NCBI GenBank assembly: GCA_965220315.1 | Contig: CBDCPP010000001.1 | Span: 59,809 to 123,808, forward strand | Source of the DNA: Dehalococcoidia bacterium | GTDB lineage: Bacteria > Chloroflexota > Dehalococcoidia > Bin125 | Direction of reading: 5' to 3' | Length of the DNA stretch: 64,000 bases | Notes under the pieces: generated by a model | The model's input: the letters and a program-made list of their open reading frames with translations, nothing else | What the model was told of the DNA's origin: nothing | Databases searched by the model: none | Shown here: positions 9,413-51,595 of the stretch, piece by piece | Position numbering within the stretch: position 1 is the first letter of the stretch | Layout of the letters: every line of letters starts with the position of its first letter | Made by a program: the position numbers and the translations under genes

Positions 9413-10501
9413 ATGAGCAGCTATCGCATCGCGCTGCTGCCGGGCGACGGCATCGGCCCCGAGGTCATCGCCGAGGCCGTCAAGATCCTTGACGTCGTCG
9501 GCCGCCAGTTCGGCCACGACTTCACCTACAGCGAGGCCACCGTCGGCGGGGCCGCCATCGACGCCTACGGTACCGCTCTCCGCCCGCAGGACCTCGCCAT
9601 GTGCAAGCGCCAGCACGCCGTTCTCTTCGGCGCCGTCGGTGGCCCCCAGTGGGACAATCCCCGCGCCAAAGTCCGTCCCGAGCAAGCCATTCTCGGCCTG
9701 CGCAAAGGCTTGCGCCTCTTCGCCAACATTCGCCCCGTCAAGATGTTCAGCTTTCTCGCCAACAGCACCACGCTCAAACGCGCCGTCGTCAAGGATGTCG
9801 ACATGATCATCCTGCGCGAGCTCACCGGCGGCATCTACTTCGGCAAGCCCCAACGCCGTTGGTCCGACTCCCGCGGCCGCAAGGCCGTCGACACCCTGCG
9901 CTACTCCGAGCAGGAGATCGAGCGTATCGTCCGCCTCGCCTTCGAACTCGCGCGCGGCCGTCGCAAGCACGTCACTTCCGTCGACAAAGCCAACGTCCTC
10001 GACAGCTCCCGGCTCTGGCGCGAAGTCGCGACCGAAGTTGCTCCCGACTACCCGGACGTCACTCTTCGCCACCTTCTCGTCGACGCCGCCGCCATGCACC
10101 TCATCCGCCAGCCCGCCGATTTCGATGTCGTCGTCACCGAAAACCTCTTCGGCGACATCCTCACGGACGAAGCCTCCATGCTCGGCGGCTCCATGGGCAT
10201 GCTGCCCAGTGCCAGCCTCGGCCGCCGCCGCAAGGACGGCACCGGTCTCGGTCTCTACGAGCCCATTCACGGCACCGCTCCCGACATCGCCGGTTCCGGC
10301 AAAGCCAACCCCGCCGCCGCGATCCTCAGCGCCGCCCTGCTGCTGCGCCATTCCCTCGGCCTGGAAGACGAAGCCGCCGCCGTCGAGCGCGCCGTCGAGA
10401 AAGTCCTGCGCGCCGGCCACCGCCCCCCGGACATCGCCTTGCCGGGCAAACGCCCCCTCAAGACTCGCCGGCTGGGCGACCGGATCGCCGCTGCGATCTA
10501 G
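9413..10501 (+). CDS. leuB: 3-isopropylmalate dehydrogenase
   Basis: [26 protein letters not shown] is present, along with the isocitrate/isopropylmalate dehydrogenase motif [39 protein letters not shown] precedes the start. Confidence 0.9.
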
Positions 10502-10688
10502 CGCCCCGGCCGCCGCGCTTGGCACAATCAAGAACCTTCGCGTTGAGATTCAGAAGGGCGTCGTATGTCGAGTTTGGCGGTCAAGCGGTTGGCCAAAGAG
10601 GAGCACTCTGATAGAGCGATCACCCTCGACGATCCTTGCTGTTCAATGCTTACGCTGGACAGGCGAATTGGTCGCGTCAAGATAGCGA

Positions 10689-13600
10689 GTGAGAGTACCA
10701 GTGCCGCGAATCTTCGATAATCTGGCCTCTGACTCCAAGCTCCTTCCCGCCCTGCAGGAGACCTTCGCCCTCTCATCCCGGGCGGACCTATGCGTTGGCT
10801 ACTTCAATCTCAGGGGTTGGGGAGGTCTTGCGCCGTATGTGGATCGTTGGGATTCAGACGTAGGTCCGTGCCGTGTGCTCATTGGGATGCAACGTCTGCC
10901 CCACGAAGAGCTTAGGGACGCCAGCAGTCTGACGGATCGGTTCTCCGGCATGGACAACCAGACGGCGCATCGCCTTAAGGTCCAGTTAGCCGAGCAGCTG
11001 CGCCAGCAACTGACCATTGGAGTACCTACCAACATAGACGAGCAGGTCCTGCGGCGGCTGGCAGCTCAACTTCGCGCGGGTAAGGTCGTTGTTAAGCTCT
11101 ATCTCCGCCACCCTCTCCATGCCAAGCTCTATCTCCTGTTCCGTGACGACCCCATCAATCCGATCGTGGGTTATCTGGGCAGCAGCAATCTGACGTTTTC
11201 CGGCCTGTCTGGCCAAGGTGAACTGAATATTGATGTGCTCGACCACGACGCCGCCCTCAAACTCCAAAAGTGGTTCGAGGACAGGTGGAGCGACAAATAC
11301 TGCATTGACATCACGGACGAGCTGGTCGAGATCATTGAAGAGAGCTGGGCGCGCGAGGCCCTGATCCCGCCTTATCACGTCTACCTCAAGATGGCCTATC
11401 ACCTTTCCCACGAGGCCCGCGCGGGCCTGGCCGAGTTCAAGATTCCAGCAGTCTTTGGTGACCGTCTCTTCGACTTCCAGGCTGCGGCGGTCAAGATCGC
11501 AGCCCACCATCTGAACAAGCGCAACGGTGTACTCATCGGCGACGTGGTGGGGCTCGGCAAGACTCTGATGGCCACGGCCGTGGCTCGCATCTTCGAGGAC
11601 GACTACGGACTAGAGACCCTGATCCTGTGCCCCAAAAACCTCGTCGGCATGTGGGAAGACTACGTCCACGAGTATCGACTGCGAGCCAGAGTCCTCTCAC
11701 TCAGCAAGATGATCAGCGAACTCCCCGATCTGCGCCGGTACCGGCTGGTCATCATCGACGAGAGCCACAATCTCCGGAACCGGGAGGGCAAACGGTATCG
11801 CGCGATTCAGGAGTACGTCCGCGCCAACGACAGTAAGTGCATCCTGCTATCGGCTACGCCTTACAACAAGACCTACTTGGACCTGTCGAATCAGCTGCGC
11901 ATCTTCGTAGAAGATGATCAAGATCTCGGCATCCGTCCCGAGAAGCTTCTCCGCGAATTGGGGGAGGTCGAGTTCAGCAGGCGGCACCAAGCATCCCCCC
12001 GAACTCTGGCGGCCTTCGACCAGAGCAAGCACGCCGCCGACTGGCGCGACCTGATGCGTCTCTATCTCGTGCGCCGGACACGGAGCTTCATCCAGGACAA
12101 CTACGCGGAGACGGACCCGGAAACAGGTCGAAAGTTCCTTACGTACGAGGATGGAAACAGATCGTTCTTCCCAACCCGCGTGCCAAGGACGGTCAAGTTC
12201 ACTATCGACGAGTCTGACCCGGTAGACCAATACGCTCGCCTGTATTCGCAGGACGTGGTCGATATCGTAAAAACGCTGCAACTGCCCCGTTACGGTCTCG
12301 GCAACTACGTCGCTGATGATCCCCACCTTCTGCCCACGCAAGCGGAGGCGGGGCAGATAGAAGACCTCTCACGGGCGGGCAAGCGGCTCATGGGTTTCTG
12401 CCGCACGAACCTTTTAAGCGCCTCGAAAGTAGCGGCGCGGCCTTCCTGCAGTCGGTGGAGCGTCACGTGCTCCGAAACTACGTCTTCCTCCACGCAATCC
12501 GCCAGGGACTGCTGCTGCCTCTGGGCACCCAGGACGCCGAAATGCTCGACTCGCGATTCACCGACGAGGACGCGGACGGGCCTCTGGCTAGCATCTTCGA
12601 ACTCGAAAATGAGGACGAGAAGGATCAAGGAGCCGGAGAGTCCGGCGCCCCAAGAGTACCCATCCTGACGGCGGCCGACTTCGAAGCGCGCGCCGCTGAG
12701 ATATACGCAGAGTACGAGAGCCGCTACCAGCGAAGATTCAAGTGGCTCCGCTCCAGTCTCTTTACGGACGCGCTGGAAGCTGACCTTCAGTCGGACGCCG
12801 CCGCCCTTTTGCAGGTCCTTCAGGCGCATGGAACCTGGAACCCGGAACATGACGCGAAACTGCACGCTCTCCACACTCTCCTCGCGGAGACGTTCCCCGA
12901 CCGGAAGGTGCTGGTCTTCTCTCAGTTCGCGGACACGGTCCGTTATCTGGAGGAGCAACTCGAGGGCAGAGGCGTGACCGCCATGGCCGGAGTGACCGGT
13001 GACTCCGCCGACCCAACGGGACTTGCACAGCGGTTCAGTCCGGTCAGCAACGAGAAGGGGGATGTCATCTCGCCCGGACAGGAACTTCGCATCCTGATTG
13101 CCACCGACGTGCTAAGCGAAGGGCAGAATCTTCAGGACTGCTCGGTGGTCGTGAACTACGATCTGCCGTGGGCAATCATCCGGCTCATCCAGCGTGTGGG
13201 CCGTGTGGACCGCATCGGTCAGAAGGCGGAGGAAATCCTGTGCCACTCTTTCCTGCCCGCCGAAGGGGTCGAGGGCATCATCAAACTCCGTAACCGAGTC
13301 CGGACGCGGCTCCAAGAGAATGCCGAGGTCGTCGGCGCGGACGAAGCGTTCTTCGAAGACGAGGCCGACTCACGGACCATCCTCAACCTCTACCACGAAA
13401 GAGCCGGCATCTTGGATGGCGACGCCGACAGTGAGGTGGACTTGGCCTCCCACGCCTACCAAATATGGAAGAACGCCATCAGTGCGGACCCGTCACTGGA
13501 GAAAGCCGTCGCTAACCTGCCCGACGTGGTGTTCTCGTCGCGGCAGCATGCGCCTATAGCCCAGCGACCGGAGGGCGTCCTCGTCTTCATGCGCACCGCG

Positions 13601-14110
13601 GACGGGAACGACGCTCTCGCCTACGTCGGGCGGGATGGCCGGAGCATCACCGAGTCGCAGATCGAAATCCTCGCCGCTGCCGAGTGCGGGCGGGACACCC
13701 CCGCTCAGCCTCATCACGAGAGCCACCATCACCTTGTTGCCGAGGGGGTCAAGCACATCGTCAAGGAGGAGAAGCGGGTTGGGGGCCAGCTTGGACGGCC
13801 TTCGGGCGCGCGCTTCCGCACCTATACCCGTCTCAAGCAGTACGCGGAGGAGATCAGAGGCCAGCTCTTCGACACCGCACCGCTGCACAAGGCCATCGAC
13901 GACATCTATCGGTACCCCTTGCGCCAGTCGGCCGTTGACACCCTGAACCGGCAGTTACGCAGCGGGGTCGACGACATAGCGCTGGCCGGCATCGTCATCT
14001 CTTTGCACGAGGAAGACCGGCTGTGCGTAACCGACGGCGACGACGCCGAGGTCCAAGAGCCGCGGATCATCTGTTCTCTGGGGCTCTTCGACGGTGAAGA
14101 GGGCGCCTGA
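10689..14110 (+). CDS. PLD(HKD)-family nuclease domain fused to an SNF2/DEAD-like helicase, with an apparent frameshift between two overlapping ORFs (10689..12668 and 12455..14110); possible pseudogene or sequencing error
   Basis: N-terminal HKD motif HPLHAKLYLLFRDD...GYLGSSNLTFSGL. Helicase motif I is LIGDVVGLGKTLMATAV, motif II is IIDESHNLRN and motif VI is QRVGRVDRIGQ. Frame 2 is open from 12320, and the frame-0 tail after about 12420 is Ser/Thr/Cys-rich nonsense. The likely real start is the GTG at 10701, which has a GAGAG RBS. The stop overlaps the methyltransferase ATG (tgATGc). Confidence 0.7.
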
Positions 14111-16974
14111 TGCCGGTCGCGATTGATGAGCTGCGGCCCCACCTGCAGACCTTCGACTTCCGAAGCCTTTTGGTGGAAGGGTTGGGATGGGACCACTACC
14201 TGGCGGAACCCCTGAGCGTTCCGGTGGAAGGTCACGATTATCTCTTGGAGCCGGTCGCGGAGAAGGCTGGATTCGTTGTTTACGCCTGCGGCCCCGGCGC
14301 TGACGGTTCGATCCCCGAGTACCCGGTCCGGCGAAAGATCGAGCAGCAGGTTGCCAAGCTGGCGTTCGAGCACATGCTTATCTTCGTCGATGCCGGACGG
14401 GACACGCAGATCTGGCAGTGGGTCAAGCGGGAGAGCGGAAAGCCCGCTGCCTGCCGCGAGCAAACGTTCCACCGAGGCCAGACAGGGGAGCCCCTGCTCC
14501 AGCGCCTTCAGACCCTTGCCTTTGAGCTGGAAGAACAGGGTCGGCTGAGTATTCCGGAGGTTGCCTCTCGCGTCCAGCGGGCCATGGACGTGGAGAAAAT
14601 CACCAAGCGCTTCTATGAGCGCTTCAAGACGGAACTCGAAGCCTTCCAGAGCTTCATCGACGGCATCGCCGAACAGGGCGACCGCGAGTGGTACGCCTCC
14701 CTGATGCTCAATCGCATGATGTTCATCTACTTCGTCCAGAAGCAGGGCTTCCTCGACGGCGATCCCGACTATCTCCGCAACCGTCTGCACATGGTCCAGA
14801 ACGGGCGCGGCGCCGGACGGTTCCAGCAGTTCTACCGCATCTTCCTGTTGCGGCTGTTCCATGAAGGGCTGGGACGGCCCGAAGCGGAGAGGTCGCCCGA
14901 TCTGGCCGCGCTGCTGGGCAAGGTCCCCTTCCTCAACGGCGGCCTGTTCGACGTGCACGACCTGGAGCGAGACAACCCGGACATCAGCATCCCCGATGAG
15001 GCCTTCGAGGAGGTCTTCGCCTTCTTCGACGGCTACCGCTGGCACCTCGACGAGCGGTCCGACAAGGTCGACAACGAGATCAATCCCGACGTGCTCGGCT
15101 ACATCTTCGAGAAGTACATCAACCAGAAACAGATGGGCGCCTACTACACCAAGGAGGACATCACCGGCTACATCACCCGCAACACGGTGATCCCTTTCCT
15201 CTTCGCCGCCGCCAAGAAAGAATGCCCGGTGGCCTTCGCTCCCGGAGGCGGCGTCTGGCGCCTGCTGCAGGACGACCCCGACCGCTACATCTACCCCGCC
15301 GTCGGGCACGGCCTCGCCTGGGCGTACGCCACCGATGCCGAGCCTCAGCCTCTAGAACATCCTTTGGATCTACCGGAGGAGATCGCTGCGGGCGTTGATG
15401 ACGTGTCCAAGCGCGGGAACTGGAACCAGCCCGCCTCCGCCGCCCACGCCCTGCCCACCGAGACCTGGCGCGAGGTGGTGGCCCGGCGCCAGCGCTACCA
15501 GGAAGTCCGCGCCACGCTTGCGGCGGGCGGGATTTCCGACGTCAACGACTGCATCACCTTGAACCTCAATATCGAGCGGTTTGTAAAGGACGTCATCGTC
15601 CAGAGCGAGGGACCGGAGCTGCTGCGCGCCTTCTGGCACGCCATGCGCGATGTCGCCGTGCTCGATCCTGCCTGCGGGTCGGGCGCTTTCCTCTTCGCCG
15701 CACTCAACATCCTCGAACCGCTCTACACGGCCTGCCTGGAGGGGATGTGGGGCTTCCTCGATGACCTGGAGCGCTCGAACCATCCTCGCCACCCCGAGAC
15801 CATGCGCGACTTCCGAGCCGTTCTGAAACAGGTCGCACAGCACCCCAGCGAGCGCTATTTCATCCTTAAGTCCATCGTCCTCAACAACCTCTACGGCGTC
15901 GATATCATGGAAGAGGCAGTCGAGATCTGTAAGCTGCGTCTCTTCCTCAAGCTCGTCGCCCAGCTCGAAACCCCCGACCAGATCGAGCCGCTGCCCGACA
16001 TCGATTTCAACATCCGCGCCGGCAATACTCTGGTGGGCTTCACCTCGCTCGACGCGGTACAGCAGGCCATGACCATCATGCCCGACGGCCAGCATCGCGC
16101 CCTGTTCGATGAGGAACGGATCATGCTCGACCTCATCAAGGAGGAAGCGGAAGTCGCGAGCCGGGCCTTTGACCAGTTCCGGGAGCAGCAGACCAAGCTC
16201 GGCGGCGAGGTCACCGCCGCAGACAAGGCCGACCTGCGCCTCCGTTTGGAGGGCCTCGGGAACGAACTCGACCGCTACCTGGCGACCGAGTACAGGATCG
16301 ACCCCGACGACCCGGACGCCTTGGGAAGCTGGCGTAAAAGCCACCAACCCTTTCACTGGTTCGTGGAGTTCTACGGGATCATGAACAAAGGTGGGTTCGA
16401 CGTGGTTATCGGGAATCCGCCATACATAGCAAGACGGAAGGTAATCCAGTCGTACACGCCGAAGGGGTTTCGCACGGCAGACTGTCCGGACGTGTACGCC
16501 ACGGTCGTGGAGCGAAGCGTCAACGTCTGTCGGGCCAATGGTCGTATCGGCATGATAGTGCCGCTCAACCTGACCTTCAGCGCGAACTTCGCCAGTCTGC
16601 GCGCGATCATGTACGAGAAATGCGGCTCCAACTGGTTCTCATCGTTTGGACGCATCCCGTCGGCTCTCTTCAGCTTTGATACGCGGGTGCGCAACACGAT
16701 ATATCTAGGACAGAAGTCATCCGGCGCATCCACGCACTGCTTCACCACGCGGCTTCACAGGTGGTTCGACTCCCAGCGGCAAGCGCTGTTCGAGGTCCTG
16801 TCCTACGCTCCCTTCTCGTCGGCGGCTTTCGATGGGTTGGTTGCCCAAGATAGGCAGCGCCCGGCTTCTACGAGATTTTCAGTCTCTGTTGGAGGGCGGA
16901 GAGTATCGGCTCCGGAACGAACTTTCCCCCACACGCGACGGTCATCCTCTTCATTTCAAGCAGACTGCGTATAA
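14110..16974 (+). CDS. Gamma-class N6-adenine DNA methyltransferase, large (PglX/Eco57I/DrmMI-like); the C-terminus may continue into the next ORF by a frameshift
   Basis: Motif X is GAYYTKEDITGYI, motif I is VLDPACGSGAFLFAALN and motif IV is VIGNPPYIARRK, in gamma-class order. There is a long N-terminal helical domain. The last roughly 50 aa of this frame are low-complexity (RQRPASTRFSVSVGGRRVS...). Confidence 0.8.
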   Translation: MPVAIDELRPHLQTFDFRSLLVEGLGWDHYLAEPLSVPVEGHDYLLEPVAEKAGFVVYACGPGADGSIPEYPVRRKIEQQVAKLAFEHMLIFVDAGRDTQIWQWVKRESGKPAACREQTFHRGQTGEPLLQRLQTLAFELEEQGRLSIPEVASRVQRAMDVEKITKRFYERFKTELEAFQSFIDGIAEQGDREWYASLMLNRMMFIYFVQKQGFLDGDPDYLRNRLHMVQNGRGAGRFQQFYRIFLLRLFHEGLGRPEAERSPDLAALLGKVPFLNGGLFDVHDLERDNPDISIPDEAFEEVFAFFDGYRWHLDERSDKVDNEINPDVLGYIFEKYINQKQMGAYYTKEDITGYITRNTVIPFLFAAAKKECPVAFAPGGGVWRLLQDDPDRYIYPAVGHGLAWAYATDAEPQPLEHPLDLPEEIAAGVDDVSKRGNWNQPASAAHALPTETWREVVARRQRYQEVRATLAAGGISDVNDCITLNLNIERFVKDVIVQSEGPELLRAFWHAMRDVAVLDPACGSGAFLFAALNILEPLYTACLEGMWGFLDDLERSNHPRHPETMRDFRAVLKQVAQHPSERYFILKSIVLNNLYGVDIMEEAVEICKLRLFLKLVAQLETPDQIEPLPDIDFNIRAGNTLVGFTSLDAVQQAMTIMPDGQHRALFDEERIMLDLIKEEAEVASRAFDQFREQQTKLGGEVTAADKADLRLRLEGLGNELDRYLATEYRIDPDDPDALGSWRKSHQPFHWFVEFYGIMNKGGFDVVIGNPPYIARRKVIQSYTPKGFRTADCPDVYATVVERSVNVCRANGRIGMIVPLNLTFSANFASLRAIMYEKCGSNWFSSFGRIPSALFSFDTRVRNTIYLGQKSSGASTHCFTTRLHRWFDSQRQALFEVLSYAPFSSAAFDGLVAQDRQRPASTRFSVSVGGRRVSAPERTFPHTRRSSSSFQADCV

Positions 16975-17443
16975 CTGGCTGACCTTTTGCGTAGATCAGC
17001 CTCCCGCATTCGGGCCGGATGGCGATCATATTCTTCAGACCGAGTATGGAACGGTGAAGTTCGGAAATCAGAACAACCGAGATCTGTCCATGTTGCTGGC
17101 GAACGGCAAGCTCATGTTCGTGTGGTGGGCTGGAGTTGGAGACGATTTTCACCTAACTCAGACAGTTCTCAAGAGCGCTCCGGTGGGGCCAAGACAACTC
17201 ACGGAGGAACACCAGAAGTTTCTTCTGGCTTCGCTGCTGGATCTAGAGCGTGCTATGGCTGAGAACGTGGTGTTCAAGCGGAACGCAGGTAAGAACATCG
17301 GGAACTACAACCTGGCCCGCTGCCGCTGGATCACGGACAAAGCGGACAAAGTCTGGCTGGAAGCGCTGGCCCTGAGCGATCTATGGGAGGAGATCCAACT
17401 GGAGTATTCGCTGGTGGTCAGGACCTCCTTTGAGGAGGAGTAA
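16832..17443 (+). CDS. Hypothetical 203-aa ORF; either the methyltransferase target-recognition/C-terminal domain reached by a frameshift, or a separate small gene
   Basis: It overlaps the methyltransferase ORF end by about 140 nt in a different frame, and its frame is open from 16709. Its translation is protein-like, whereas the methyltransferase-frame tail is not. Its end overlaps the start of the next gene, which suggests translational coupling. Confidence 0.45.
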   Translation: MGWLPKIGSARLLRDFQSLLEGGEYRLRNELSPTRDGHPLHFKQTAYNWLTFCVDQPPAFGPDGDHILQTEYGTVKFGNQNNRDLSMLLANGKLMFVWWAGVGDDFHLTQTVLKSAPVGPRQLTEEHQKFLLASLLDLERAMAENVVFKRNAGKNIGNYNLARCRWITDKADKVWLEALALSDLWEEIQLEYSLVVRTSFEEE

Positions 17444-18011
17444 GAAGACGCGTTTGAGGGTCAACCTCCCACCGGCGACTGTGGTGAAGGGCAATCTCGA
17501 CCTGCTTGGTGAGTCGTTGACTGCCCTCTTCTGCTCCGTCCGCTGTCCCGGCGATCTAATTCTCAAAACCTACGATCTCGCCAGGGCGATGCGCGGTTCC
17601 GGCACGCCCGTGATCGGTGGCTTCCAAACGCCGATGGAGAAGGAGTGCCTGCGCCTGCTGCTCCGGGGCAGTCAGCCGGTCGTCGTGTGCCCGGCTCGTG
17701 GCATCGAGAAGATGCGGGTCCCCCGTGACTGGCGCCCAGCCCTGGAGGAAGGCCGGCTGCTGGTCCTCTCCCTCTTCCCGCCCTCGCGCCGCCGTCCCAC
17801 GGCGGAGACCGCCGCCCGGCGCAACGACTTAGTGGCATCCCTCGCCCGCGAGGTCTTCATCGCTCACGCCGCCGCGGGCGGCAAGACCGAAGCCTTCGCC
17901 CGTAAGATCGCGGACTCCGGCAAGCCCCTCCTCACTCTCGACAGCCCTGCCAACGCGAACCTGCTGGCGCTGGGCGCCCGCCCCGTCACGCCGGAGTTCG
18001 CTCAGCGCTGA
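17430..18011 (+). CDS. DprA/Smf-like (SLOG-superfamily Rossmann) protein
   Basis: The pattern GSGTPVIGGFQTPMEKECLRLLL...VVVCPARGIE...RLLVLS...RRNDLVASLAREVFIAHAAAGGKTEAF matches the DprA Rossmann nucleotide/ssDNA-binding fold. It begins at a TTG/GTG alternative start that overlaps the previous ORF. Confidence 0.6.
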   Translation: MRRSKKTRLRVNLPPATVVKGNLDLLGESLTALFCSVRCPGDLILKTYDLARAMRGSGTPVIGGFQTPMEKECLRLLLRGSQPVVVCPARGIEKMRVPRDWRPALEEGRLLVLSLFPPSRRRPTAETAARRNDLVASLAREVFIAHAAAGGKTEAFARKIADSGKPLLTLDSPANANLLALGARPVTPEFAQR

Positions 18012-18261
18012 CGTTGACCATTCACGGCCCTAATTTTTTGGAACTGCTTTTCCCGATTGTCCCGCAGTGGAACGCCCGCTAGTCTGGATCCACGATGTCT
18101 GGTCGTGCGCATGCTTATCCCGAGAGGTCCGTATCCGCCGCGCTCCATCACGCGGCGGATGCGATCGGCCGCTAAGGCGCGCTCCTGCGGGCGCCTCGGA
18201 GCGAGGCGCTTCCGCATCCGACCCGGCACCCCGCTGCTCGTACCCATGAAGGACTGAGACC

Positions 18262-19896
18262 GTGAACGCTCCGCGTGTGATCCTCTACGACACCATTCTC
18301 CGCGACGGCTCCCAGATGGAAGGCATCGCCTTCTCCCTTGAGGACAAGCTCGCCATCGCGCACCGCCTCGACGATATCGGCGTCCACTACATCGAAGGCG
18401 GCTTCCCCGGCTCCAACGAGAAGGACCGCCTCTTCTTTCAAGAGATCAAGCGCACTCCCCTCAAGCATGCCAAGGTGGTCGCCTTCGGTGGCACCCGCCG
18501 CGCCGGCCTCCAGGTCCAGGACGATCCCAACATCCAAGCGATCGCGGATGCGGACACCACCGTCGTCACCCTCGTCGGCAAGGCCAGCAGCTATCAGGTC
18601 CGCGTCGCCCTCGAGACCAGCGGCGAAGAGAACCTCGCCATGATCGCCGACTCCGTCGCTCACTTCAAAGCCCTCGGCCGCGAGGTCGGCTTCGACGCCG
18701 AGCACTTCTTCGACGGTTTCCGTGACGACTCGGACTACGCTCTCCAAACCCTCCGCACTGCCGCCCGCGCCGGCGCCGACACGCTCATCCTCTGTGACAC
18801 CAACGGCGGCGCTCTCACCGCCGACCTCGTGCACGCGATCGAAGCTGCCAAACGAGCCGTCCCGCAGGCGCAGTTTGGCATCCACGTCCACAACGACACC
18901 GGCCTCGCCGTCGCTAACAGCCTCGCCGCCGTCTCCGCCGGCGTTGTGCAAGTCCAAGGCTGCTTCAACGGTTACGGCGAACGCTGCGGTAACGCCAACC
19001 TCGCTACCATCCTCGCCACCCTCCAGCTCAAAATGGGCATTCCCGTTGTCAACAACGAGCAGCTCGCCCGCCTCACCGAGATCTCCCGCTACATCGCCGA
19101 ACTCGCCAACCTCCCCTTAGATTCGCAAGCCCCATACGTCGGCGCCAGTGCCTTCGCCCACAAGGCCGGCTACCACGTCGCCGCCGTCATCAAGGACGAG
19201 AACACCTATCAACACGCGAAACCCGCCGCCGTCGGCAACGACCGCCGGGTCCTCGTCAGCGAGCTCTCCGGGCAGCGCAATATCTCCTACAAACTGCGAG
19301 AGCGCGGCCTGGACCTTCCCCTTACTCCCGAAGAGACCAGGGCCCTGCTCGAACGCGTCAAGCAGATGGAGAGCCGCGGGTACCAGTACGAGGGCGCCGA
19401 TGCCTCCTTCGAGCTACTCGCCCATCGCGCCCGTCCCAACTACACGCCCCCCTTCGAGCTTGAGGACTTTCTCATCGTAGAGCGTCGCCGCCACACGGCT
19501 GATCTTGCCAACGGGGAAGCCGAAAACGAGGCGGCCGAGAACAGTGAGCGCAACGAGATGCTCGCCGAAGCGATGGCCAAGGTCGGCGTTTCCGATCAGC
19601 TCTTCCAGACCGCCGCCGAAGGTAACGGGCCCGTCAACGCGCTCGACCGGGCCGTTCGCAAAGGCTTGCGCGAGGCCTACCCCGCGCTCGACCGCATGCA
19701 CCTGCTCGACTACAAGGTTCGTATCCTCGACGCTGCCGCCGGTACCGAGGCCAAAGTCCGCGTCCTCATCGAATCCACCGACGGCGAGCACATCTGGAAC
19801 ACCGTTGGCTCCTCCACCGATGTGATCGAGGCCTCCTGGCTGGCTCTCGCCGACGCCTTCGAATACTTTCTGCTCAAGCAAGAAGAATGGCGCTAA
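18262..19896 (+). CDS. cimA: LeuA-family 2-isopropylmalate/(R)-citramalate synthase (probably CimA)
   Basis: MNAPRVILYDTILRDGSQMEGIAFSLEDKLAIAHRLDDIGVHYIEGGFPGSN and HVHNDTGLAVANSLAAV are present, with a LeuA-like C-terminal regulatory domain. It is a second paralog besides leuA in an ilv/leu context. The start is a GTG. Confidence 0.85.
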   Translation: MNAPRVILYDTILRDGSQMEGIAFSLEDKLAIAHRLDDIGVHYIEGGFPGSNEKDRLFFQEIKRTPLKHAKVVAFGGTRRAGLQVQDDPNIQAIADADTTVVTLVGKASSYQVRVALETSGEENLAMIADSVAHFKALGREVGFDAEHFFDGFRDDSDYALQTLRTAARAGADTLILCDTNGGALTADLVHAIEAAKRAVPQAQFGIHVHNDTGLAVANSLAAVSAGVVQVQGCFNGYGERCGNANLATILATLQLKMGIPVVNNEQLARLTEISRYIAELANLPLDSQAPYVGASAFAHKAGYHVAAVIKDENTYQHAKPAAVGNDRRVLVSELSGQRNISYKLRERGLDLPLTPEETRALLERVKQMESRGYQYEGADASFELLAHRARPNYTPPFELEDFLIVERRRHTADLANGEAENEAAENSERNEMLAEAMAKVGVSDQLFQTAAEGNGPVNALDRAVRKGLREAYPALDRMHLLDYKVRILDAAAGTEAKVRVLIESTDGEHIWNTVGSSTDVIEASWLALADAFEYFLLKQEEWR

Positions 19897-21132: not shown

Positions 21133-21210
<78 letters not shown>

Positions 21211-42988: not shown

Positions 42989-45544
42989 CTACCCGGCCGC
43001 GAAGGCGCGGCAAGCACGCGCTCGTTTCAGATCGTCCAATGCCTCCAGCAACTTGCGCTGCAAGGAAGGATCCTCATCGTCGAGGGTCCCGAGCAGCGCC
43101 GTCGTGCGAGCGATGACGGTGTCGTCGGGGCGATAGTGCGGGAAAAGTGCGCCGAAGTAGCGGTTGGCGAAATCCTTATCGTGGGATTGGAAGATACCGT
43201 GCACCTCGCTGAGAAACCGCCCGACATAGGGCTCGAGCACGTCTGCTTGATGTGTCCAGAGAAAGCCGTCCATGGCTGCGCCCATCATGTGCAACGATAC
43301 GTCGCGGTCGCTAGTGAACTGCTCCCATGCGCGCGCCTTGTGATCAGCGTCTGGAGCGGCCGTGGCCGCGCGGGCGACGGCGCGTTGGCCGCGGTCGCTA
43401 GGGTCGCGCTCGCTCTCCCGCACGACCCGCTCCTGGCCACCGGGGATACCGTAGGCCACCTGTTTCACTGCCAGGGACCAGCGCATGTCTTGGTCGAGCT
43501 CGAAACCGGTGATGCCCGTGCCCCGATCGATGAGCTCCAGCATGCGGGACACCGTCGCCGGTTCTTGCGCCGTCGCGACTGCCGCGCGCGCCCAAGTAAT
43601 CCGGCGGTTTTGGTCAGGGGCGGCGAACAGTCGTTCGTGCACGACCTCAAAGAGTGCGGCTGCTTCCACGACGCGCCGTGACTCTGGAACGAACCAGGCG
43701 ATGGCCGCCTGGGCGTTGCCGAGCACGGTATCGATCAACTCCAATTCCTCCTCGAACACGATTTTGTCGCGGACGAGGGGGAGGTAATCCGTAGACCGGA
43801 ATTGCTGGTCTCGGACCATGTCCCAGAGCGTGCGCCAGAGTTGCTGGCGGAGGAGCGGGTCGCGGAAGCGCTCGATCCGGGCGCGGACATAGTCCCGAGA
43901 CCGCGCATCCAAGACGATCTTGACGTAGGCGTGGTCGTCATAGTTCGGGAAGACGCAAGCGGGAGCCGGCCGCCCGGCCGCCTCCTCGATCACTGTCCGG
44001 GGACCGTCGATCTGTACCGGGATCGTGTCCTGGATCACTGGTGCGTCGGCCACTTCGGCGACGAGCGCCAACTGCAGGGCGTGAGGGCGCAACGTCGGAT
44101 GATCTTTCTCGGCGCGCTGTTCGACGGCCAACGCTGACACCTCGCCATTTGCGTGCCAGGACGTCTCGATCGTGTTGAGGCCTTCCGTTTCGATCCAAAG
44201 CCGTGACCATTCCTTGAGGTCGCGGGCTGCTCCGTGTTCGAGCGCGCCCAAAAACTGGCGAAGCGTCGTGTTCTTCCAGGCGTAGGTATCGAAGTAGTGG
44301 CGCATGCCTGCTCGGAAGCTGTCCAGTCCGATCGTGGCTGCAAGTTGCTTGAGCACGGCCGCGCCCTTGCCGTAGGTGATCCCGTCAAAGTTGAGGAAGG
44401 TGGCGTCCGTATCCGGCACGGCGCCGGCGATCGGATGCGTGGTGACTAATTGATCCTGGTGATAGGCCCAAGCCTTCATGCGCGAATGGAACGCCTGCCA
44501 GGCGCGATCGCGGAAGCGCGTGGCACTGCCCATCGCGAGATAGGCCATATAAGTGGCGAAGCTTTCATTGAGCCAGAGGTCGTTCCACCAACGCATGGTC
44601 ACGAGATCGCCGAACCACATATGCGCCATTTCGTGGAGGATCACTTCTGCGCGATTGAGCCGTTGCAGGTCGGTCGGTGGATCGCGGAAGACCATGCGCT
44701 CCGAGAAGGTGATCGCGCCGACGTTCTCCATGGCCCCCGCATTGAACTCCGGGACAAAGATCTGGTCGTACTTGTCGAACGGATAAGGAAAGTCGAAGAA
44801 CTCGCTGAAATAGGCCAAGCCCTGCCGGGTGATCTCGAAAAGCTCGTCACTGTCGATGTGTGGCCTCAGAGACTGCCGGGCGTAGAAGCTGAGAGGTACA
44901 TCTTCCCAGCGTGATGTGAAGCGTTCGTAGGGACCGGCGATCACCGCGAAGAGGTAGGTCGCGATCGGCGGTGTCTCCGCGTACGCATGCCGGAGGCGCC
45001 CATCCGTCTCTGTAGTGGTCTCGGTTTCACTGGTGTTCGCGATCACCGTCCATTCCGGCGGTGCTGTGACGGATAGGCGCAGCTTCGCGCGGATATCCGG
45101 CTGGTCGAAGCAGGGCAGTAGGCGGTGAGCTTCGTACGGCTCGAAGTTGGTGTAGATGTACTCTTGGCCGTCCACCGGATCAGCGAAGTAATGAAAACCA
45201 GCACCGGTGCGGTCAAAGATGTTGGTGTAACGAATTCGCACAGTGTTCTGCTCGCGCAGAAGGGCGCCGTCGAGCACGAGCCGGTTCGATTCCCAAGCCG
45301 CACTTGGAGTCTCTTCGCCGTTAACTTCGAGCTGTTCAATAGACTTGCCCGTGCAGTCGAAGAAAGTGCCCTCGCGCGGCGCCGCGTGGCGGAACTCAAT
45401 CGTCACGTCGCCGGTGTATTCGCCGCCACCGCTGGAGAGAGAAAGGGAGAGTGCGTAGCGCACGTCGGTAATCTGCGTGGCGCGGATCTCGGCCTCACGC
45501 TGCGTGAGGCGGTTGGGCCCCTGCGGATTGCGGTGACTAATCAT
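42989..45544 (-). CDS. pepN: Aminopeptidase N (M1 family)
   Basis: The HEMAHMWFGDLVTMRWWNDLWLNESFATY zinc-binding HEXXH-18-E motif and the GAMEN motif (FNAGAMENVGAITF) are present. The start is assigned to the ATG at 45544, which overlaps the amidase stop (ATGA); the track ORF extends to 45694. Confidence 0.85.
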   Translation of the reverse strand: MISHRNPQGPNRLTQREAEIRATQITDVRYALSLSLSSGGGEYTGDVTIEFRHAAPREGTFFDCTGKSIEQLEVNGEETPSAAWESNRLVLDGALLREQNTVRIRYTNIFDRTGAGFHYFADPVDGQEYIYTNFEPYEAHRLLPCFDQPDIRAKLRLSVTAPPEWTVIANTSETETTTETDGRLRHAYAETPPIATYLFAVIAGPYERFTSRWEDVPLSFYARQSLRPHIDSDELFEITRQGLAYFSEFFDFPYPFDKYDQIFVPEFNAGAMENVGAITFSERMVFRDPPTDLQRLNRAEVILHEMAHMWFGDLVTMRWWNDLWLNESFATYMAYLAMGSATRFRDRAWQAFHSRMKAWAYHQDQLVTTHPIAGAVPDTDATFLNFDGITYGKGAAVLKQLAATIGLDSFRAGMRHYFDTYAWKNTTLRQFLGALEHGAARDLKEWSRLWIETEGLNTIETSWHANGEVSALAVEQRAEKDHPTLRPHALQLALVAEVADAPVIQDTIPVQIDGPRTVIEEAAGRPAPACVFPNYDDHAYVKIVLDARSRDYVRARIERFRDPLLRQQLWRTLWDMVRDQQFRSTDYLPLVRDKIVFEEELELIDTVLGNAQAAIAWFVPESRRVVEAAALFEVVHERLFAAPDQNRRITWARAAVATAQEPATVSRMLELIDRGTGITGFELDQDMRWSLAVKQVAYGIPGGQERVVRESERDPSDRGQRAVARAATAAPDADHKARAWEQFTSDRDVSLHMMGAAMDGFLWTHQADVLEPYVGRFLSEVHGIFQSHDKDFANRYFGALFPHYRPDDTVIARTTALLGTLDDEDPSLQRKLLEALDDLKRARACRAFAAG

Positions 45545-46983
45545 GGCTGGGTCGAGTATATCGCTGCGGGTCGCTCGTCCGGTTGGGACAGCGAAGGCCA
45601 ACGGTCGTGCCAGGGCCGCGCCCGCTCGTACGCGTACGAGGCCTGAAGCACGAGATCGTCGCGATGTCGGGGCCCAACGATTTGCAGCCCGCAAGGTAAG
45701 CCCGCATCGCTGAAACCTGCCCGCACCGAGGCTGCGGGATGGCCGGTGAAGTTGAACGGATAGGTGAAGACGATCGGGTCGTGCGGGACACCGTCCTTCT
45801 GTAAGGGGGTAGGCCCCTCGGCATTGAACGCCTCCGAAGCAAGCGTTGGTGTGAGCAGCAAGTCGTACTGCTCGAAGAGTTCCCAGGTCCAGCGCTGGAT
45901 CTGCCCGCGTGCACTGTAGAACGCTCGGAAGTCAGTGGCGTTCACGTCCAAGGAGGCATCTAGATACCGGACGAAGTCGGCGGTGAACTCGCTATGGCGA
46001 TCGCGGTACTCCTCCCAGAGAAGTGCCAGCGCTTGGAAGCCGAACATGCGGATCCAGTGCTCCGCCGTCTGAGGGATGGCGTCGGCGTTGTCGACGACTG
46101 TGTGCCCAAGATCGCGAAAGACCTGAACGCTGGCCTCAACTTCGCGCATGATGTCCGCTGGGACGTCCGCCTGACCGAGCGTGCGATTGTAGGCGATACG
46201 TAGCTTTGGCAAAGGACGGTCGAGCGCCGCGATGTAGGACTCTGTCGGCGGTGGCAACGATATGGGATCGGAGCCGTGCGGCCCGGCGACCTGATCTAGG
46301 TAGAGCGCGGCATCGCGGACCGTGCGGGTGAGTGGACCGTAGACGCTGATATTCATCCACGGTTGCATCGCGCGCGGTCCGATGGGCACGCGGCCGAACG
46401 ATGTCTTAAGTCCGTAGAGTCCTGTGTACGCCGCGGGAATGCGGATTGATCCGCCGCCGTCGGAAGCGGTAGCGAGGGGCACGAGGCCGCCCGCTATCGC
46501 TGCTGCCGATCCCCCGCTGGAACCGCCGGGCGTACGTTCTAGGTTCCAGGGATTGCGCGATGCTCCGAATAGATCGTTGCTCGAGAAGGCGGCATAGCCG
46601 AACTCGGGCGTGTTGGTTTTGCCGACGACGATCGCGCCGGCCGCGCGCAGCCGCGTCACGTGCACGTCATCCCATTCGGCGTAATGATCTTTGAGCACCC
46701 GTGATCCGCAGGTCGTAGGGAAGCCGGCGGCGTTCTCTAAATCCTTCACCCCGAGGGGGAGACCGCCCAAAGGACCCAATTCTTCCCCACGGGCCAGCTG
46801 CTCCGTTTGGCGGGCCGCTTCGGCGCGAGCGGTCTCTGCGTCGAGGGCAACGAAGGCGTTGAGGGCGGGATTGAGTGCCTCGATCCGATCGAGCGCGTGG
46901 TCGAGGAGTTCGGTGGGCGAGATCACTCGCCTGCGGATGAGGCTACTGAGTTCTTCGGCGCTGGCGAAATCGAGGTCGGTCAC
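45541..46983 (-). CDS. Amidase (amidase-signature family)
   Basis: The [32 protein letters not shown] signature with Ser-cisSer-Lys is present. An AGGAGG RBS lies 5 nt before the GTG at 46983. Confidence 0.85.
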
Positions 46984-47141: not shown

Positions 47142-48434
47142 ATGAGTATCGTCCGCTTCGTCCACGCCGCTGATCTGCACCTCGACAGCCCTTTCCGCGG
47201 TCTGCGAGAGGTGGAGCCTGCCATCGGGGCCGAGCTGCGTGAGGCCACCTTCGCGGCCTACGACAAGATCATCGACCTTTGCTTGACTGAGAAAGTCGAT
47301 GCGCTGCTGGTCGCCGGCGACATCTACGACGCACGCGACCGCAGCCTGCGCGCACAGCTGCGTTTCCGCGATGGCTTGCAGCGCCTCGCAGATGCAGGGA
47401 TTCGCTCCTTCGTGTGCCATGGCAATCACGACCCGCTGGATGGCTGGGAGGCGCGGATCGACATGCCTGAGGGCTGCCAGCGCTTTGGGTCCGAAGTGGA
47501 GGCGGTGCCGCTCGATCCAAACGAGCCGGATGCCGTCGTCGTCTATGGTGTCAGCTTCCCGCAGCAAGATGTGCGCGAGAACCTAGCGCGCCGCTTTCAG
47601 CGCGACACACGCCACTTGTACGCAATCGGCCTGCTGCACGCCAACGTCGGAGGCGATAGCGGGCACGAGCCCTACGCTCCCTGCACTGTCGAAGATCTTG
47701 AACGCTCTGGGATGGACTATTGGGCGCTCGGCCATGTGCATACGCGCCGTGTGCTGCGCGAGTACGACCCGGTCGTGGTTTACCCGGGTAACCCGCAGGG
47801 TCGCCATCGCCGAGAGAGCGGAGCGCGGGGCGTTGCCTTGGTCGATGTTGGCAACGATCGGCAGGCGCAAGTGCGCTTTCGTGATGTCGATGTCGTGCGC
47901 TGGGAAACGACCGTTCTCAATATCGCCGACCTCTCCGGCGAGCAACAGCTCCTGGAGGTTTTGGACGAGCGTCTTAACGGTATCGCTGCCGCAGACCGGC
48001 ACGCGGTCGTCATCGTGCGGCTGATCGGCCGGGGCGCGCTGCACTCCACACTGCGACGTGGCGACATGGCTGAGGACCTGCGCGCACAGCTGAACGACTC
48101 ACTGCGTGGTCGTGACCCGTTTGTCTGGTGCGCCGCCGTCGAGGTGGAAACGGCGCCGCCGTTTGATCGCGCGGAGCGCAGACAGACACAAGATTTTCTA
48201 GCGGACATCCTGCGCTTGGTGGATGAGATCCAAGCACAGGAGGCGCCGCCCGCGTGGTTACGGGAGCCGCTGGCGGCGCTGTATGCGCAGGGCAAGGCCC
48301 GCCGCTATTTGGGATCGGATCCGTTGACCAATGCGGAGCTGCTACAACTTTTGGACCGCGCCGAGGAGTGCTGCGTCGACGCGTTGCTGGCGGCGGAAGA
48401 TAGCAGCGGAGCGGCTGAGAGTTCGCCATCGTGA
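47142..48434 (+). CDS. SbcD/Mre11-like metallophosphoesterase (DNA repair exonuclease subunit)
   Basis: MSIVRFVHAADLHLDSPF, VAGDIYD and FVCHGNHD are calcineurin-like phosphoesterase motifs. The 4-nt overlap with the downstream ATPase gene is present. Confidence 0.8.
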   Translation: MSIVRFVHAADLHLDSPFRGLREVEPAIGAELREATFAAYDKIIDLCLTEKVDALLVAGDIYDARDRSLRAQLRFRDGLQRLADAGIRSFVCHGNHDPLDGWEARIDMPEGCQRFGSEVEAVPLDPNEPDAVVVYGVSFPQQDVRENLARRFQRDTRHLYAIGLLHANVGGDSGHEPYAPCTVEDLERSGMDYWALGHVHTRRVLREYDPVVVYPGNPQGRHRRESGARGVALVDVGNDRQAQVRFRDVDVVRWETTVLNIADLSGEQQLLEVLDERLNGIAAADRHAVVIVRLIGRGALHSTLRRGDMAEDLRAQLNDSLRGRDPFVWCAAVEVETAPPFDRAERRQTQDFLADILRLVDEIQAQEAPPAWLREPLAALYAQGKARRYLGSDPLTNAELLQLLDRAEECCVDALLAAEDSSGAAESSPS

Positions 48435-51400
48435 AGCTCCGGCGTCTGCACCTCAAGGGCTTTGGCCACTTCAGTGATGTCGAACTTCCGGCCGACAACG
48501 CTGATCTTTCTGGGCGACTGACGGTGATTCACGGGCCCAACGAAGCGGGCAAGTCGACCCTGCTCGAATTCATCCGCACCATGCTTTTTGGCTTCGCCGT
48601 GCGTGAGCGCGACCGCCGCTTCCCGCCATTGGCAGGCGGGCGGCACGGCGGGCGCTTGCAGGTGCTGGACGACGAAAAGCGCGCCTACGTGATCGAGCGT
48701 TTCGCCGGCCGCGGCAGTGGCACGCTGACTGTCAGCGCTGAGAACGGTCGACGCGTGGAGCCGGCGACGCTCCAGCGCATGCTTGGCCACGCATCGGTGC
48801 TCCTGTTTAAGAACGTGTTTGCCTTCGATTTGGACCAGTTGCGCGATGTCACAGCGCTGCAGGAGGCTGGCGTAACGGACAGCATCTACAGCGCGGGAGT
48901 GGGCGCGGCCGGATTGACGCAGGCGCTGACCCAGTTCGATGCATCCCGTCGGAAGATCTACCTGCCGAACGGAAGAAAGCAGCCTGTCGCTCAGGCCTTG
49001 AACGCGTTGGCCTCGGTGGAGGAAAAGCTGGCAGCGTCAGCTGAAGCGGCGAGCCAGTACAGCAAGCTGCAGGCGGAGCGCGAAACGACCGAACGTGCGC
49101 TGGCGGCGGCGGATGCCGCGCGCGCGCGCGCGCAACAAGAGAGCATCCGCGCGGAGCGGCTCCACGAGGCCTGGTCGGACTGGGTGACCCTGCGGGAGTT
49201 GGAGCGTGAACTGGAACAGATTCCCCCGCGCCCTGAGTTTCCCAGCGACGCGACAACTCGCTTGGAGAATGCCGAGGCGAGTCTTGGGGAGGTCTCAGTA
49301 CGGCTGGAGAGAGAACGGACGGAGCTGGCGCGTTGTCGCAGCGCCACTGCTGCGATCAAGTTCGACGCGAAGCTACTGGAGGCTGCGGCGGAGATCGAAA
49401 CGCTCCGCCGCAAGCGAGACACCTTCGCTGTCTCGCTGGATGACCTGCCGAATTGTCGAGAGGAAATGCAGGGTCTCGAGCAGGAAGTGGCGCAGGATAT
49501 ACGTACGTTGGGGCGCGCTTGGAACGCTGATCGCGTCGAGCGGTTCGACACGTCGGCACCCGTGCGCAAGGAGCTGGCGGAGGTCGGCGCGGCCTACAAT
49601 GCCGCACTGCAATCGCGGCGGGATGGCGAGATCGCTTGTGAGAGCGTAGACCGGCGTCTCCGCGACGAGTTAGTACGTTTGGAGGCGGCGCGGGAGGCGC
49701 TGCACGAACTCCCCGCCCCGATCCTGGATGTCGACACGCTGGGAGCCCGCCGCATCGCGGTGAATCGCCTTCGCGACGAGTTGGTGGGCTTGGAGGCGGC
49801 GCGTACGCTTCGCGATCAGGAGAATGCGCGCCTCGGTGAATTGCAAACACAGCGGCCGGAAGCGCAGCCGGTGCCCTTCTGGCAGCGAACGGAGTGGATC
49901 GGAGCTGGAGCAACGGCAACAGCAGGCGCGCTTGCCCTCGTCGGCGGCGTCTTGGCGGGCGGAACCGGCTTGATTTTCGGTCTCGTCGCGGCGGGCCTGC
50001 TCGCGGCGACGGCGATCTTCCTGGCGCTGCGGGCGCGCAAGGCGCCGGTCCCGCTGGCCTGGAAGCAGTTCGATAAAGCGATCCGCGCGCAGCAGGAACG
50101 AGAGACGGCAGCGACGCAGGCAGTGGAGGCGATCGAAGCGCGCTTGCCGGAGTTGACGGCGGAGGCGCAGTTGGGAACGGGGGCGTCGGAGAGCGACATC
50201 ACTGAGGTGAAGGAAGAGCTCGATTCGGCGCAGAAGACGCTCGATACGCACCTTGAGCGTGAGGGCGATCTCCGCGCGGCCGAGCGGCAGGTGCAATTGG
50301 CGCAGCAGGAAGTAGAGCGAGCACGGACGGCCACGGCAGAGGCGGATGCATCCGCTGAGGTGGCTCAACGTGCCTGGACCCTGTGGCTGGACTCGCGGGA
50401 GCTGATGGAGACGATGCAGCCGGACGAGGTGACTGAGCTGTTCGGTCAGCTGGACACAGTTCGTGCAAAGCTGGGGCAGCTTGCCGATCGTCGGCGGCGC
50501 TTGGCCGCGATCGAGCATGACATTGAGGAGTTCTGCGTCCTGGCCAAGCCGCTGCTTCAGCAGCGCGAAGATGCGCACCAGCAGACGCCGGCGCAGCTCG
50601 AACCCGAAGTCGACGCGCTGATCGCCGCGTTCGACGCCAGTCGCGAAGCTAGAGAAGAGAAAGATCGCTTAGCCGCACAGGGGAAGGTCGCTCGCCGCCG
50701 CCTAGCGGACGTGACCGCCGAACAGAAGCGCACGGAAGAGGCGCTACAGAACCTCCTTACCTCAGCGGGTGTGGACGACCCGGTCGAGTACCGGCGTCTG
50801 GCGGCGCAGCAAGCGCGCCGCGCGGAGTTGGAGCCACAAGCTCGGGAGTGCGTAGCCGGGCTGGTGCGGCGGAGCGGTCCCGACCAAGCCTTCAGAGAAT
50901 TCCGGGCCGCGCTGGAAACATCCGACCAAGATACCCTACAGCAGAACATGGAGCGCGCGGCGGATCGTCTCGCCGACCAAGAAGAGCGCCGCGACCAACG
51001 CATCGCCCGTCTGGGCGAACTGCGGCAGCAGCTCGAAACCCTGGAGCGCGATGTAAGCGCGGCCGAGTTGCGCCAGGATCGCGAAGTGTTGCAGACAGAG
51101 CTGGCCGCGCTAGCGCGCGAATGGTCGATGCTCACACTTGCCAAGGTGCTTCTCGAGCAGGCGCGCCGCCGCTATGAGGAGGAGCGTCAGCCAGGAGTCG
51201 TGCGGCGCGCGGAGGAATACTTCGGACGGATTACGGGGGGACGCTACCCGCGACTCAATGCACCATTGGACCAGCAACAGATCGAGATCATCCAAGACAA
51301 CGGCGATCGGAAGACTCCAACCGAGCTGAGCCGGGGGACGCAGGAGCAACTCTATCTGTCACTGCGCTTCGGATTGATCGAAGAGTTCGCTCACCACTCG

Positions 51401-51595
51401 GCGCGGCTCCCGGTAATCGTCGACGACATTCTGGTCAACTTCGATCCAGAGCGGGCCGAGCGGGCTGCGGATGCGCTGCGCCAGCTGGCGCGCTCCAATC
51501 AAGTGTTGGTGTTCACTTGCCATCCTTCGACAGTAGAGCTGTTCCAGCGCGTTGCTCCAGAAGTTGACACCTTGCCGCTGCCCGATCGCGGCTGA
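48431..51595 (+). CDS. SbcC/Rad50-like AAA ATPase (YhaN-like), with a hydrophobic insert in the coiled-coil
   Basis: The N-terminal Walker A is IHGPNEAGKSTLLEFI, there is a long coiled-coil, and the C-terminus has signature/D-loop motifs (LSRGTQEQLYLSLRF, LPVIVDDILVNFD, LVFTCH). A central roughly 45-aa hydrophobic segment (WIGAGATATAGALALVGGVLAGGTGLIFGLVAAGLLAATAIFLAL) lies at about 49890-50040. Confidence 0.8.
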   Translation: MKLRRLHLKGFGHFSDVELPADNADLSGRLTVIHGPNEAGKSTLLEFIRTMLFGFAVRERDRRFPPLAGGRHGGRLQVLDDEKRAYVIERFAGRGSGTLTVSAENGRRVEPATLQRMLGHASVLLFKNVFAFDLDQLRDVTALQEAGVTDSIYSAGVGAAGLTQALTQFDASRRKIYLPNGRKQPVAQALNALASVEEKLAASAEAASQYSKLQAERETTERALAAADAARARAQQESIRAERLHEAWSDWVTLRELERELEQIPPRPEFPSDATTRLENAEASLGEVSVRLERERTELARCRSATAAIKFDAKLLEAAAEIETLRRKRDTFAVSLDDLPNCREEMQGLEQEVAQDIRTLGRAWNADRVERFDTSAPVRKELAEVGAAYNAALQSRRDGEIACESVDRRLRDELVRLEAAREALHELPAPILDVDTLGARRIAVNRLRDELVGLEAARTLRDQENARLGELQTQRPEAQPVPFWQRTEWIGAGATATAGALALVGGVLAGGTGLIFGLVAAGLLAATAIFLALRARKAPVPLAWKQFDKAIRAQQERETAATQAVEAIEARLPELTAEAQLGTGASESDITEVKEELDSAQKTLDTHLEREGDLRAAERQVQLAQQEVERARTATAEADASAEVAQRAWTLWLDSRELMETMQPDEVTELFGQLDTVRAKLGQLADRRRRLAAIEHDIEEFCVLAKPLLQQREDAHQQTPAQLEPEVDALIAAFDASREAREEKDRLAAQGKVARRRLADVTAEQKRTEEALQNLLTSAGVDDPVEYRRLAAQQARRAELEPQARECVAGLVRRSGPDQAFREFRAALETSDQDTLQQNMERAADRLADQEERRDQRIARLGELRQQLETLERDVSAAELRQDREVLQTELAALAREWSMLTLAKVLLEQARRRYEEERQPGVVRRAEEYFGRITGGRYPRLNAPLDQQQIEIIQDNGDRKTPTELSRGTQEQLYLSLRFGLIEEFAHHSARLPVIVDDILVNFDPERAERAADALRQLARSNQVLVFTCHPSTVELFQRVAPEVDTLPLPDRG

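Follow-up and report, generated by a model that had tools for sequence, protein, structure and literature searches.

A three-gene cassette resembling a restriction-modification (R-M) system lies in a 64,000-nt stretch of DNA from a Dehalococcoidia bacterium (contig CBDCPP010000001.1), which we call the window and whose positions are used as coordinates throughout. Its first two genes encode a phospholipase D (PLD, HKD-type)-SNF2 helicase-nuclease and an N6-adenine methyltransferase, and each is broken by a single-base frameshift. Very probably, the restriction gene and the modification gene have both undergone real and recent pseudogenisation. The break in the helicase gene had been noticed in a first-pass annotation made from the sequence. 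The frameshift in the methyltransferase gene is a second lesion, which that annotation missed.

The helicase-nuclease gene is read from two plus-strand frames. An open reading frame (ORF) spans 10689..12668 in frame 0, and frame 2 is open from 12320 to 14110. Frame 0 reads ...AGKRLMGFCRTNL (...RLMGFCRTNL) and then runs on as Ser/Thr/Cys-rich nonsense (LSASKVAARPSCSRWSVTCSETTSSS...) until a stop at 12668. From 12413 onward, frame 2 gives the protein-like sequence FKRLESSGAAFLQSVERHVLRNYVFLHA.... When one base was inserted in the T run at 12412–12415, a single ORF across both halves was obtained. The repaired product was aligned with more than 120 intact homologues (1127–1168 aa), with 99–100% coverage and 79–84% identity. 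In the alignment, the break in the gene fell exactly at the junction of L and F in the invariant CRTNLFKRLESS, with CRTNL before it and FKRLESS after it. Pfam matches before the break were a PLDc_2/NgoFVII N-terminal domain (residues 120–203), SNF2-rel_dom (264–330), and a DEAD/ResIII lobe; the match after the break was Helicase_C (residues 724–844 of the repaired protein). The first-pass annotation had proposed that a single-base indel at the ccttttaag run divides one gene into an upstream DEXH half and a downstream HELICc half, and that the fused protein would have about 1130 aa. The colinear repaired protein, the Pfam domains on either side of the break, and the repaired length of 1136 aa agreed with this proposal, and the alignment to intact homologues that it had called for placed the shift. 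By homology, the two ORFs are halves of one PLD(HKD)-SNF2 gene, far beyond chance. The gene and its lesion are laid out as follows.

10701..12668, plus strand: 5' fragment of the PLD(HKD)-SNF2 helicase-nuclease gene, with the HKD domain and RecA lobe 1 (GxGKT, DESH, SAT).
12412..12415, plus strand: site of the one-base deletion, AAC CTT TT- AAG against AAC CTN TTY AAG (N L F K) in homologues.
12413..14110, plus strand: 3' part of the same gene, in frame 2 only, with FKRLESS, RecA lobe 2 (Helicase_C), and the C-terminal domain.

The length of 1136 aa is counted from the GTG at 10701. This GTG aligned with Met-1 of the homologues, and the same start was called on a sister contig of the same strain (described below). 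The frame-0 ORF of the first-pass annotation was therefore present, but its start at 10689 was not retained; the true start is probably GTG 10701. The 5' fragment stayed in frame through the Leu codon at 12411–12413 and was followed by an 84-codon nonsense tail with a stop at 12666–12668. The earliest in-frame start codon of the 3' part was GTG 12455, which had no obvious ribosome-binding site. An ORF starting there is 14 residues short at the beginning of the conserved segment.

Separate overlapping genes for the N- and C-terminal halves, which the first-pass annotation had named as the arrangement that would speak against a frameshift, have nothing in their favour beyond the two ORFs themselves. 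The first ORF carries an 84-residue nonsense tail and the second has no good start. Related loci were also compared (L011–L090, the best 80 of 178 genome matches, among which broken copies may be under-sampled and the window's own genome is not included). The helicase was in one unbroken frame in 80/80 of them, and also in two further homologous loci (L006 and L007). This refutes a natural two-gene arrangement, which we regard as next to impossible.

The first-pass annotation had left the sign of the indel ambiguous. A single base was right, and judged from the reading frames the shift is the loss of one base, from frame 0 to frame 2. The junction allele in the window is CTTTTAAG, and intact-gene alleles would read CTTTTCAAG or CTTTTTAAG. 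The Phe codon of homologues at this site was TTC in 68/72 and TTT in 4/72. Because it is mostly TTC, the lost base was probably the lone C of CTT TTC AAG, and the T run itself was probably not contracted.

The rest of the helicase gene appeared intact. The repaired protein deviated at 5 of 670 near-invariant columns, one of these being just the GTG start, and intact homologues deviated at a mean of 4.3 (standard deviation 4.2) of the same columns. Identity to the nearest homologue was alike on either side of the break (86% before, 83% after). The helicase thus shows no drift since its inactivation, which points to a recent event.

Programmed −1 ribosomal frameshifting or transcriptional slippage could yield a full-length protein from a split gene. 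The required shift is indeed −1, and the site, C CUU UUA, would permit weak re-pairing of tRNA-Leu(UUA) on UUU. However, C CUU UUA is not an X XXY YYZ heptamer, the downstream 80 nt folded worse than the average shuffle (z = +0.86), and T4 is too short for transcriptional slippage. Recoding is also not conserved, because the site was read in frame in each of the 80 relatives and in over 120 homologues from databases. Recoding of either kind is highly improbable.

The methyltransferase gene in full covers 14110..17443, and its ATG overlaps the helicase stop (ATGA). It is divided by the second lesion into the following parts.

14110..16974, plus strand: 5' fragment of an Eco57I/MmeI-family N6-adenine methyltransferase gene, with VLDPACGSGAF and GNPPY intact (PADLOC REase_MTase_IIG).
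16843, plus strand: extra base G, GTT G CCC AAG, where homologues have L[VI]PK[LI]G at the junction.
16844..17443, plus strand: 3' part of the methyltransferase gene, the C-terminal specificity-variable region of about 200 residues, in the shifted frame only.

The methyltransferase was in frame through the Val codon at 16840–16842, continued as a nonsense tail, and ended prematurely at 16974. The extra G at 16843 lies outside any homopolymer. The 3' part was 71% identical to residues 919–1120 of the L007 homologue. It is contained in an ORF (16832..17443) that opens with a fortuitous ATG, three codons ahead of the conserved PKIGSARLL. Deleting the extra G gave a 1110-aa protein, colinear with the 1106–1120-aa homologues that stand behind intact helicase genes in L006 and L007.

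Pfam matched the methyltransferase to Eco57I (1.9e-26), MmeI_Mtase (6.1e-08), and also N6_Mtase. The best PADLOC model was REase_MTase_IIG PDLC03628 (E = 1.9e-283), a REBASE-derived Type IIG model. The motif order was that of the gamma class, FxGxG and then NPPY, and the C-terminal region was variable. In residues 1–500, Pfam found no nuclease family. The conserved HKD-SNF2 partner gene suggests that cleavage may be delegated from the methyltransferase to this partner.

Real mutations had to be distinguished from errors of the assembly. The window is a section of a contig of 1,527,706 bp. The sister contig (ERZ25072076 ctg239168_4x_l, 98 kb, labelled 4x; loci L001/L004/L005/L008/L010) overlaps window positions 1–28003. 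Over these 28 kb, the two sequences disagreed in 15 one-base indels and in 1 single-nucleotide polymorphism (C/T, at window 21825), about one indel error per 1.9 kb of the sister contig. Nine discordant sites fell in recognisable genes: leuD (7664), the helicase (12859, 12867), the methyltransferase (14321, 16692), cimA (19336, 19570), and LysM (20723, 20934). At all nine, the window kept the frame and the 4x contig broke it, so that the window is the accurate consensus and the 4x contig illustrates how random errors appear here. The T4 at 12412–12415 and the G at 16843 were identical in the two sequences, and 0/15 of the private errors were common to both. A 275-aa 'LysM' gene of the sister contig had seemed to be broken in the window; this candidate was rejected as an artefact of three sister-contig indel errors, and the correct LysM protein in the window has 191 aa.

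The agreement of the two sequences also bears on phase variation, in which reversible slippage at a repeat tract would have left the OFF state captured in the assembly. R-M genes are classic phase-variable loci, and the helicase shift adjoins a T run. However, this tract is only T4, or T5 at most if intact, and no tract is conserved at the site, because homologues mostly have CTG TTC or CTC TTC there. Runs of at least 7 nt were absent from the cassette, and neither shift site had a repeat tract. The methyltransferase lesion (GTTGCCC at 16843) lies in unique, non-repeat sequence. Two consensus sequences, the window and the sister contig, were in the same state at both sites. Phase variation is thus hardly credible.

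Additional support for the methyltransferase lesion came from a Logan contig (L009, 1721 bp, run ERR13602196), which is an exact substring of the window (15937..17657). It crosses the lesion with the same extra G, and the gene ends at the same premature stop. A data note on the same submission batch describes ERR13605512 as a Revio HiFi run and ERR13602175 as an Illumina NovaSeq X Hi-C run. From the accession blocks, ERR13602196 is probably Illumina Hi-C and ERR13605531 probably PacBio HiFi; the Logan contig ends did not match Hi-C restriction sites, so the run type was not confirmed in that way. Two other Logan contigs (L002 and L003, runs ERR13602196 and ERR13605531) both start exactly at window 7789, and their ends, at 11782 and 10975, fall within the helicase gene. 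The common start suggests a branch in the assembly graph just upstream of 7789, for example by strain variation.

Reading frames across the window were checked by Pfam profile coverage of 30 genes, as a frame plot of G+C at third codon positions was too noisy. In the 30 flanking genes, as in leuB and cimA, the Pfam matches spanned the full profiles. Detectable frameshifts numbered 0 in the 30 flanking genes versus 2 in the 7.3-kb cassette. Two overlapping minus-strand ORFs (42989..45694 and 45541..46983) were considered as a split gene and rejected, since each is a full-length gene of its own, one for an M1 aminopeptidase and one for an amidase. Homopolymers of 7 nt occur four times in the window, and at least two of them, at 7420 (leuC) and 40106 (AICARFT gene), are inside Pfam-matched regions with the frame kept. 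A consensus error at a run of 4–5 nt is therefore unlikely. Neither lesion is a change of homopolymer length: the deletion probably removed an isolated C, and the insertion added an isolated G.

If the missing base were a long-read artefact, the helicase gene would be intact in the organism. The contig naming and the project papers indicate that the source is apparently a PacBio HiFi/metaMDBG metagenome assembly, in which one-base indels are the typical residual error. Together with related records, the contig names suggest an origin in the Sanger Aquatic Symbiosis Genomics pipeline (PacBio HiFi, metaMDBG), and the 4x sister contig has such an error about every 1.9 kb. However, none of the 15 private errors of the sister contig was common to the window, yet both cassette lesions were. 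The methyltransferase lesion appeared again when another run, probably Illumina, was assembled independently from k-mers. If errors were uniform, the chance of both falling in the cassette would be roughly 0.01–0.03.

Several points weigh against pseudogenisation. The repaired helicase gene shows no other decay, and one lone lesion of this kind is also expected from an assembly error. The evidence for the lesions consists of assembled consensus sequences, and the two long-read contigs may go back to the same reads. The type of indel does not exclude an error, because one of the 15 errors of the error-prone sister contig was a non-homopolymer insertion. A second-technology contig spanning 12413 was looked for and none was found. 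Searches for the exact product of ORF2 gave no match for starts at 12455, 12542, and 12809, and for the start at 12908 the 4x sister contig was the sole match; the product of a guessed edge-cut ORF1 (11754..12668) had no match either. An exact DNA pattern over the junction (T4 plus 0–1 extra base) had 0 matches in Joint Genome Institute metagenome contigs. A protein search with the ORF1 nonsense tail gave no matches, but it also missed the window's own ORF and was uninformative.

On balance, a consensus error is unlikely, though less firmly so for the helicase site. The first-pass annotation had offered inactivation, phase variation, and assembly error side by side. With a second frameshift, the presence of both lesions in the second consensus, and the clean flanks, inactivation is favoured; phase variation is unsupported, and assembly error at the helicase site is weakened.

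The relatives of the cassette were examined for conservation and decay. Across the related loci, identity was 62–84% for the helicase and 43–74% for the methyltransferase. The carriers were mostly metagenome-assembled genomes (MAGs) from marine sponges, assigned to Dehalococcoidia, Tepidiformaceae, Bryobacterales, Gemmatimonadota, Poribacteria, and Spirochaetia. The helicase was strongly conserved across Chloroflexota, Acidobacteriota, Gemmatimonadota, Poribacteria, and Spirochaetia MAGs. At least 5 genomes had two copies (OZ253489.1, OZ242262.1, CATOSD01, CBDCTC01, and CBDCYU01). In two other genomes, a frameshifted methyltransferase stood beside an intact helicase-nuclease (L028, at about 14359–14374, and L060, at about 12895–12898), indicating that the cassette decays elsewhere too. 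An intact nuclease beside a frameshifted methyltransferase would be lethal in a classical Type II system and is tolerable if targeting needs the methyltransferase, as in Type I and Type III. The state of L028 and L060 weakly supports a nuclease that depends on the methyltransferase for targeting.

From the domains and the genomic context, the working of the intact cassette can be proposed. Both the marking of host sites and the sequence specificity would come from the methyltransferase. ATP would drive the SNF2 motor along DNA, and DNA lacking the mark would be cut by the single-HKD nuclease, which probably works as a dimer. Because the helicase is far more conserved than the methyltransferase, the methyltransferase/target recognition domain (TRD) part is likely to set specificity, as in R-M systems. 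In the window, the base loss at 12412–12415 would end the helicase-nuclease after RecA lobe 1 and destroy the invariant FKRLESS motif. With this motif destroyed and lobe 2 lacking an efficient start, ATP-driven translocation should be abolished. Through the extra G at 16843, the methyltransferase would lose about 200 residues at its C-terminal end, the region that varies most and presumably recognises the target. Both the helicase and the methyltransferase activities should be gone. It is very unlikely that the lesions instead created a working split system, with a core methyltransferase plus a separately translated C-terminal specificity piece and a truncated HKD-lobe-1 protein of altered or moonlighting role, or that sponge-symbiont populations toggle the cassette by non-repeat indels.

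The third gene of the cassette was intact.

17430..18011, plus strand: DprA-like/PsyrA-like gene of 193 aa (Pfam DNA_processg_A; PADLOC PsyrA, 3.5e-16).

L006, L007, and at least 38/80 related loci likewise have a DprA-like gene on the downstream side. At some related loci, 1–3 kb of other genes separate it from the methyltransferase gene. In the window, the region 10502..18261 contains only the three-gene cassette, between leuB (9413..10501) and a cimA-like gene (18262..19896), which is citramalate/isopropylmalate-synthase-like. The setting is a branched-chain amino-acid cluster with ilvBN, ilvC, leuA, and leuCD. The gene order and the overlapping stop and start of the helicase and methyltransferase genes suggest one operon. 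The cassette had 61.5% G+C and its flanks 63.5–65%. No direct or inverted repeats flanked it, and no mobility gene (integrase or transposase) was present at the locus. The host genome is probably sponge-associated, and its best matches and G+C suggest a probable place in Chloroflexota/Dehalococcoidia.

Two other features of the window were recorded. The LysM gene is followed downstream by a tRNA gene (21133..21206, plus strand; Rfam RF00005, 63.5 bits). An overlapping plus-strand gene pair at 47142..51595 encodes a Metallophos phosphoesterase (430 aa) and a 1054-aa AAA_27/AAA_23/SMC_N ATPase. This pair looks SbcCD-like, or it could alternatively be a defence-related nuclease-ATPase pair.

For annotation, these results mean that the two helicase ORFs should be given as one pseudogene and the split methyltransferase likewise, and that the cassette is to be left out of counts of active defence systems. 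Broken pairs of R-M-like genes are common, and the frameshift itself is ordinary. This analysis adds the methyltransferase frameshift, exact positions for both lesions, and an intact cassette that is widespread and barely characterised in sponge symbionts. In defence databases, all models matched by the intact cassette were candidate or putative ones. For methylome studies, a copy disabled in nature can be compared with intact relatives, such as the one in OZ246422.1.

The cassette was compared with known systems. Frameshift-inactivated R-M genes are a general phenomenon, seen for example in Helicobacter and Neisseria. The cassette resembles them in that a single-base indel truncates the restriction component and the partner methyltransferase is disabled too, and the lack of other decay fits a recent event. 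Unlike those genes, the lesions in the window are not at a long homopolymer or repeat, and there is no sign of reversible switching.

The methyltransferase has the composition of Type IIG enzymes of the Eco57I/MmeI family, a gamma-class N6-adenine domain plus TRD in a polypeptide of about 1000–1200 aa. In Type III and Type ISP systems, a superfamily 2 (SF2) motor and a nuclease rely on the methyltransferase/TRD for specificity. The cassette is similar in its conserved restriction component and variable methyltransferase/TRD part. It differs in that its nuclease is an N-terminal HKD/PLD domain instead of PD-(D/E)XK, its motor is of the SNF2 type, and its methyltransferase is a large gamma-class Eco57I-family protein.

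With DISARM class 1 (DrmD, DrmMI, DrmC, DrmA, DrmB), the cassette shares SNF2 helicase, Eco57I-like N6-adenine methyltransferase, and PLD nuclease activities, whereas PLD and SNF2 are fused in one cassette protein. PADLOC matches of the cassette to DrmD and DrmMI were weak to moderate. The DrmA and DrmD matches covered just the generic Helicase_C region, and the NCBIfam DrmD score was 140 bits against a cut-off of 610. The core genes drmA and drmB (DUF1998) were absent among the three genes between leuB and cimA, none of which matched DrmB.

The best PADLOC match of the helicase was the candidate model 'HKD+Snf2' (C3a139, 4.6e-47). The nearest described effector architecture is that of Type-2 BR (BREX-related) systems, whose defining components are a DUF499 ATPase, DUF3780, and a DUF1156-type methyltransferase (PMC12839542). 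In both, the effector joins an N-terminal HKD nuclease and a Swi2/Snf2 helicase in one protein, an N6-adenine methyltransferase is its partner, and the logic is RM-like. Pfam gave no match to DUF499, DUF3780, or DUF1156 in the cassette genes, and, unlike in Type-2 BR, the cassette methyltransferase is Eco57I/MmeI-like (Type IIG-like) and the third gene is DprA-like. SauUSI, a Type IV restriction enzyme with a PLD nuclease and an SF2 helicase (cited as ref. 79 in PMC12839542), also combines an N-terminal PLD nuclease and an SF2 ATPase in one polypeptide, but it is modification-dependent and has no partner methyltransferase. A PDB sequence search gave only generic SF2/SNF2 matches, none to SauUSI, and no close solved structure. 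The cassette is outside every named multi-gene system tested and belongs to the broad RM-like class that combines a helicase-nuclease with an N6-methyltransferase.

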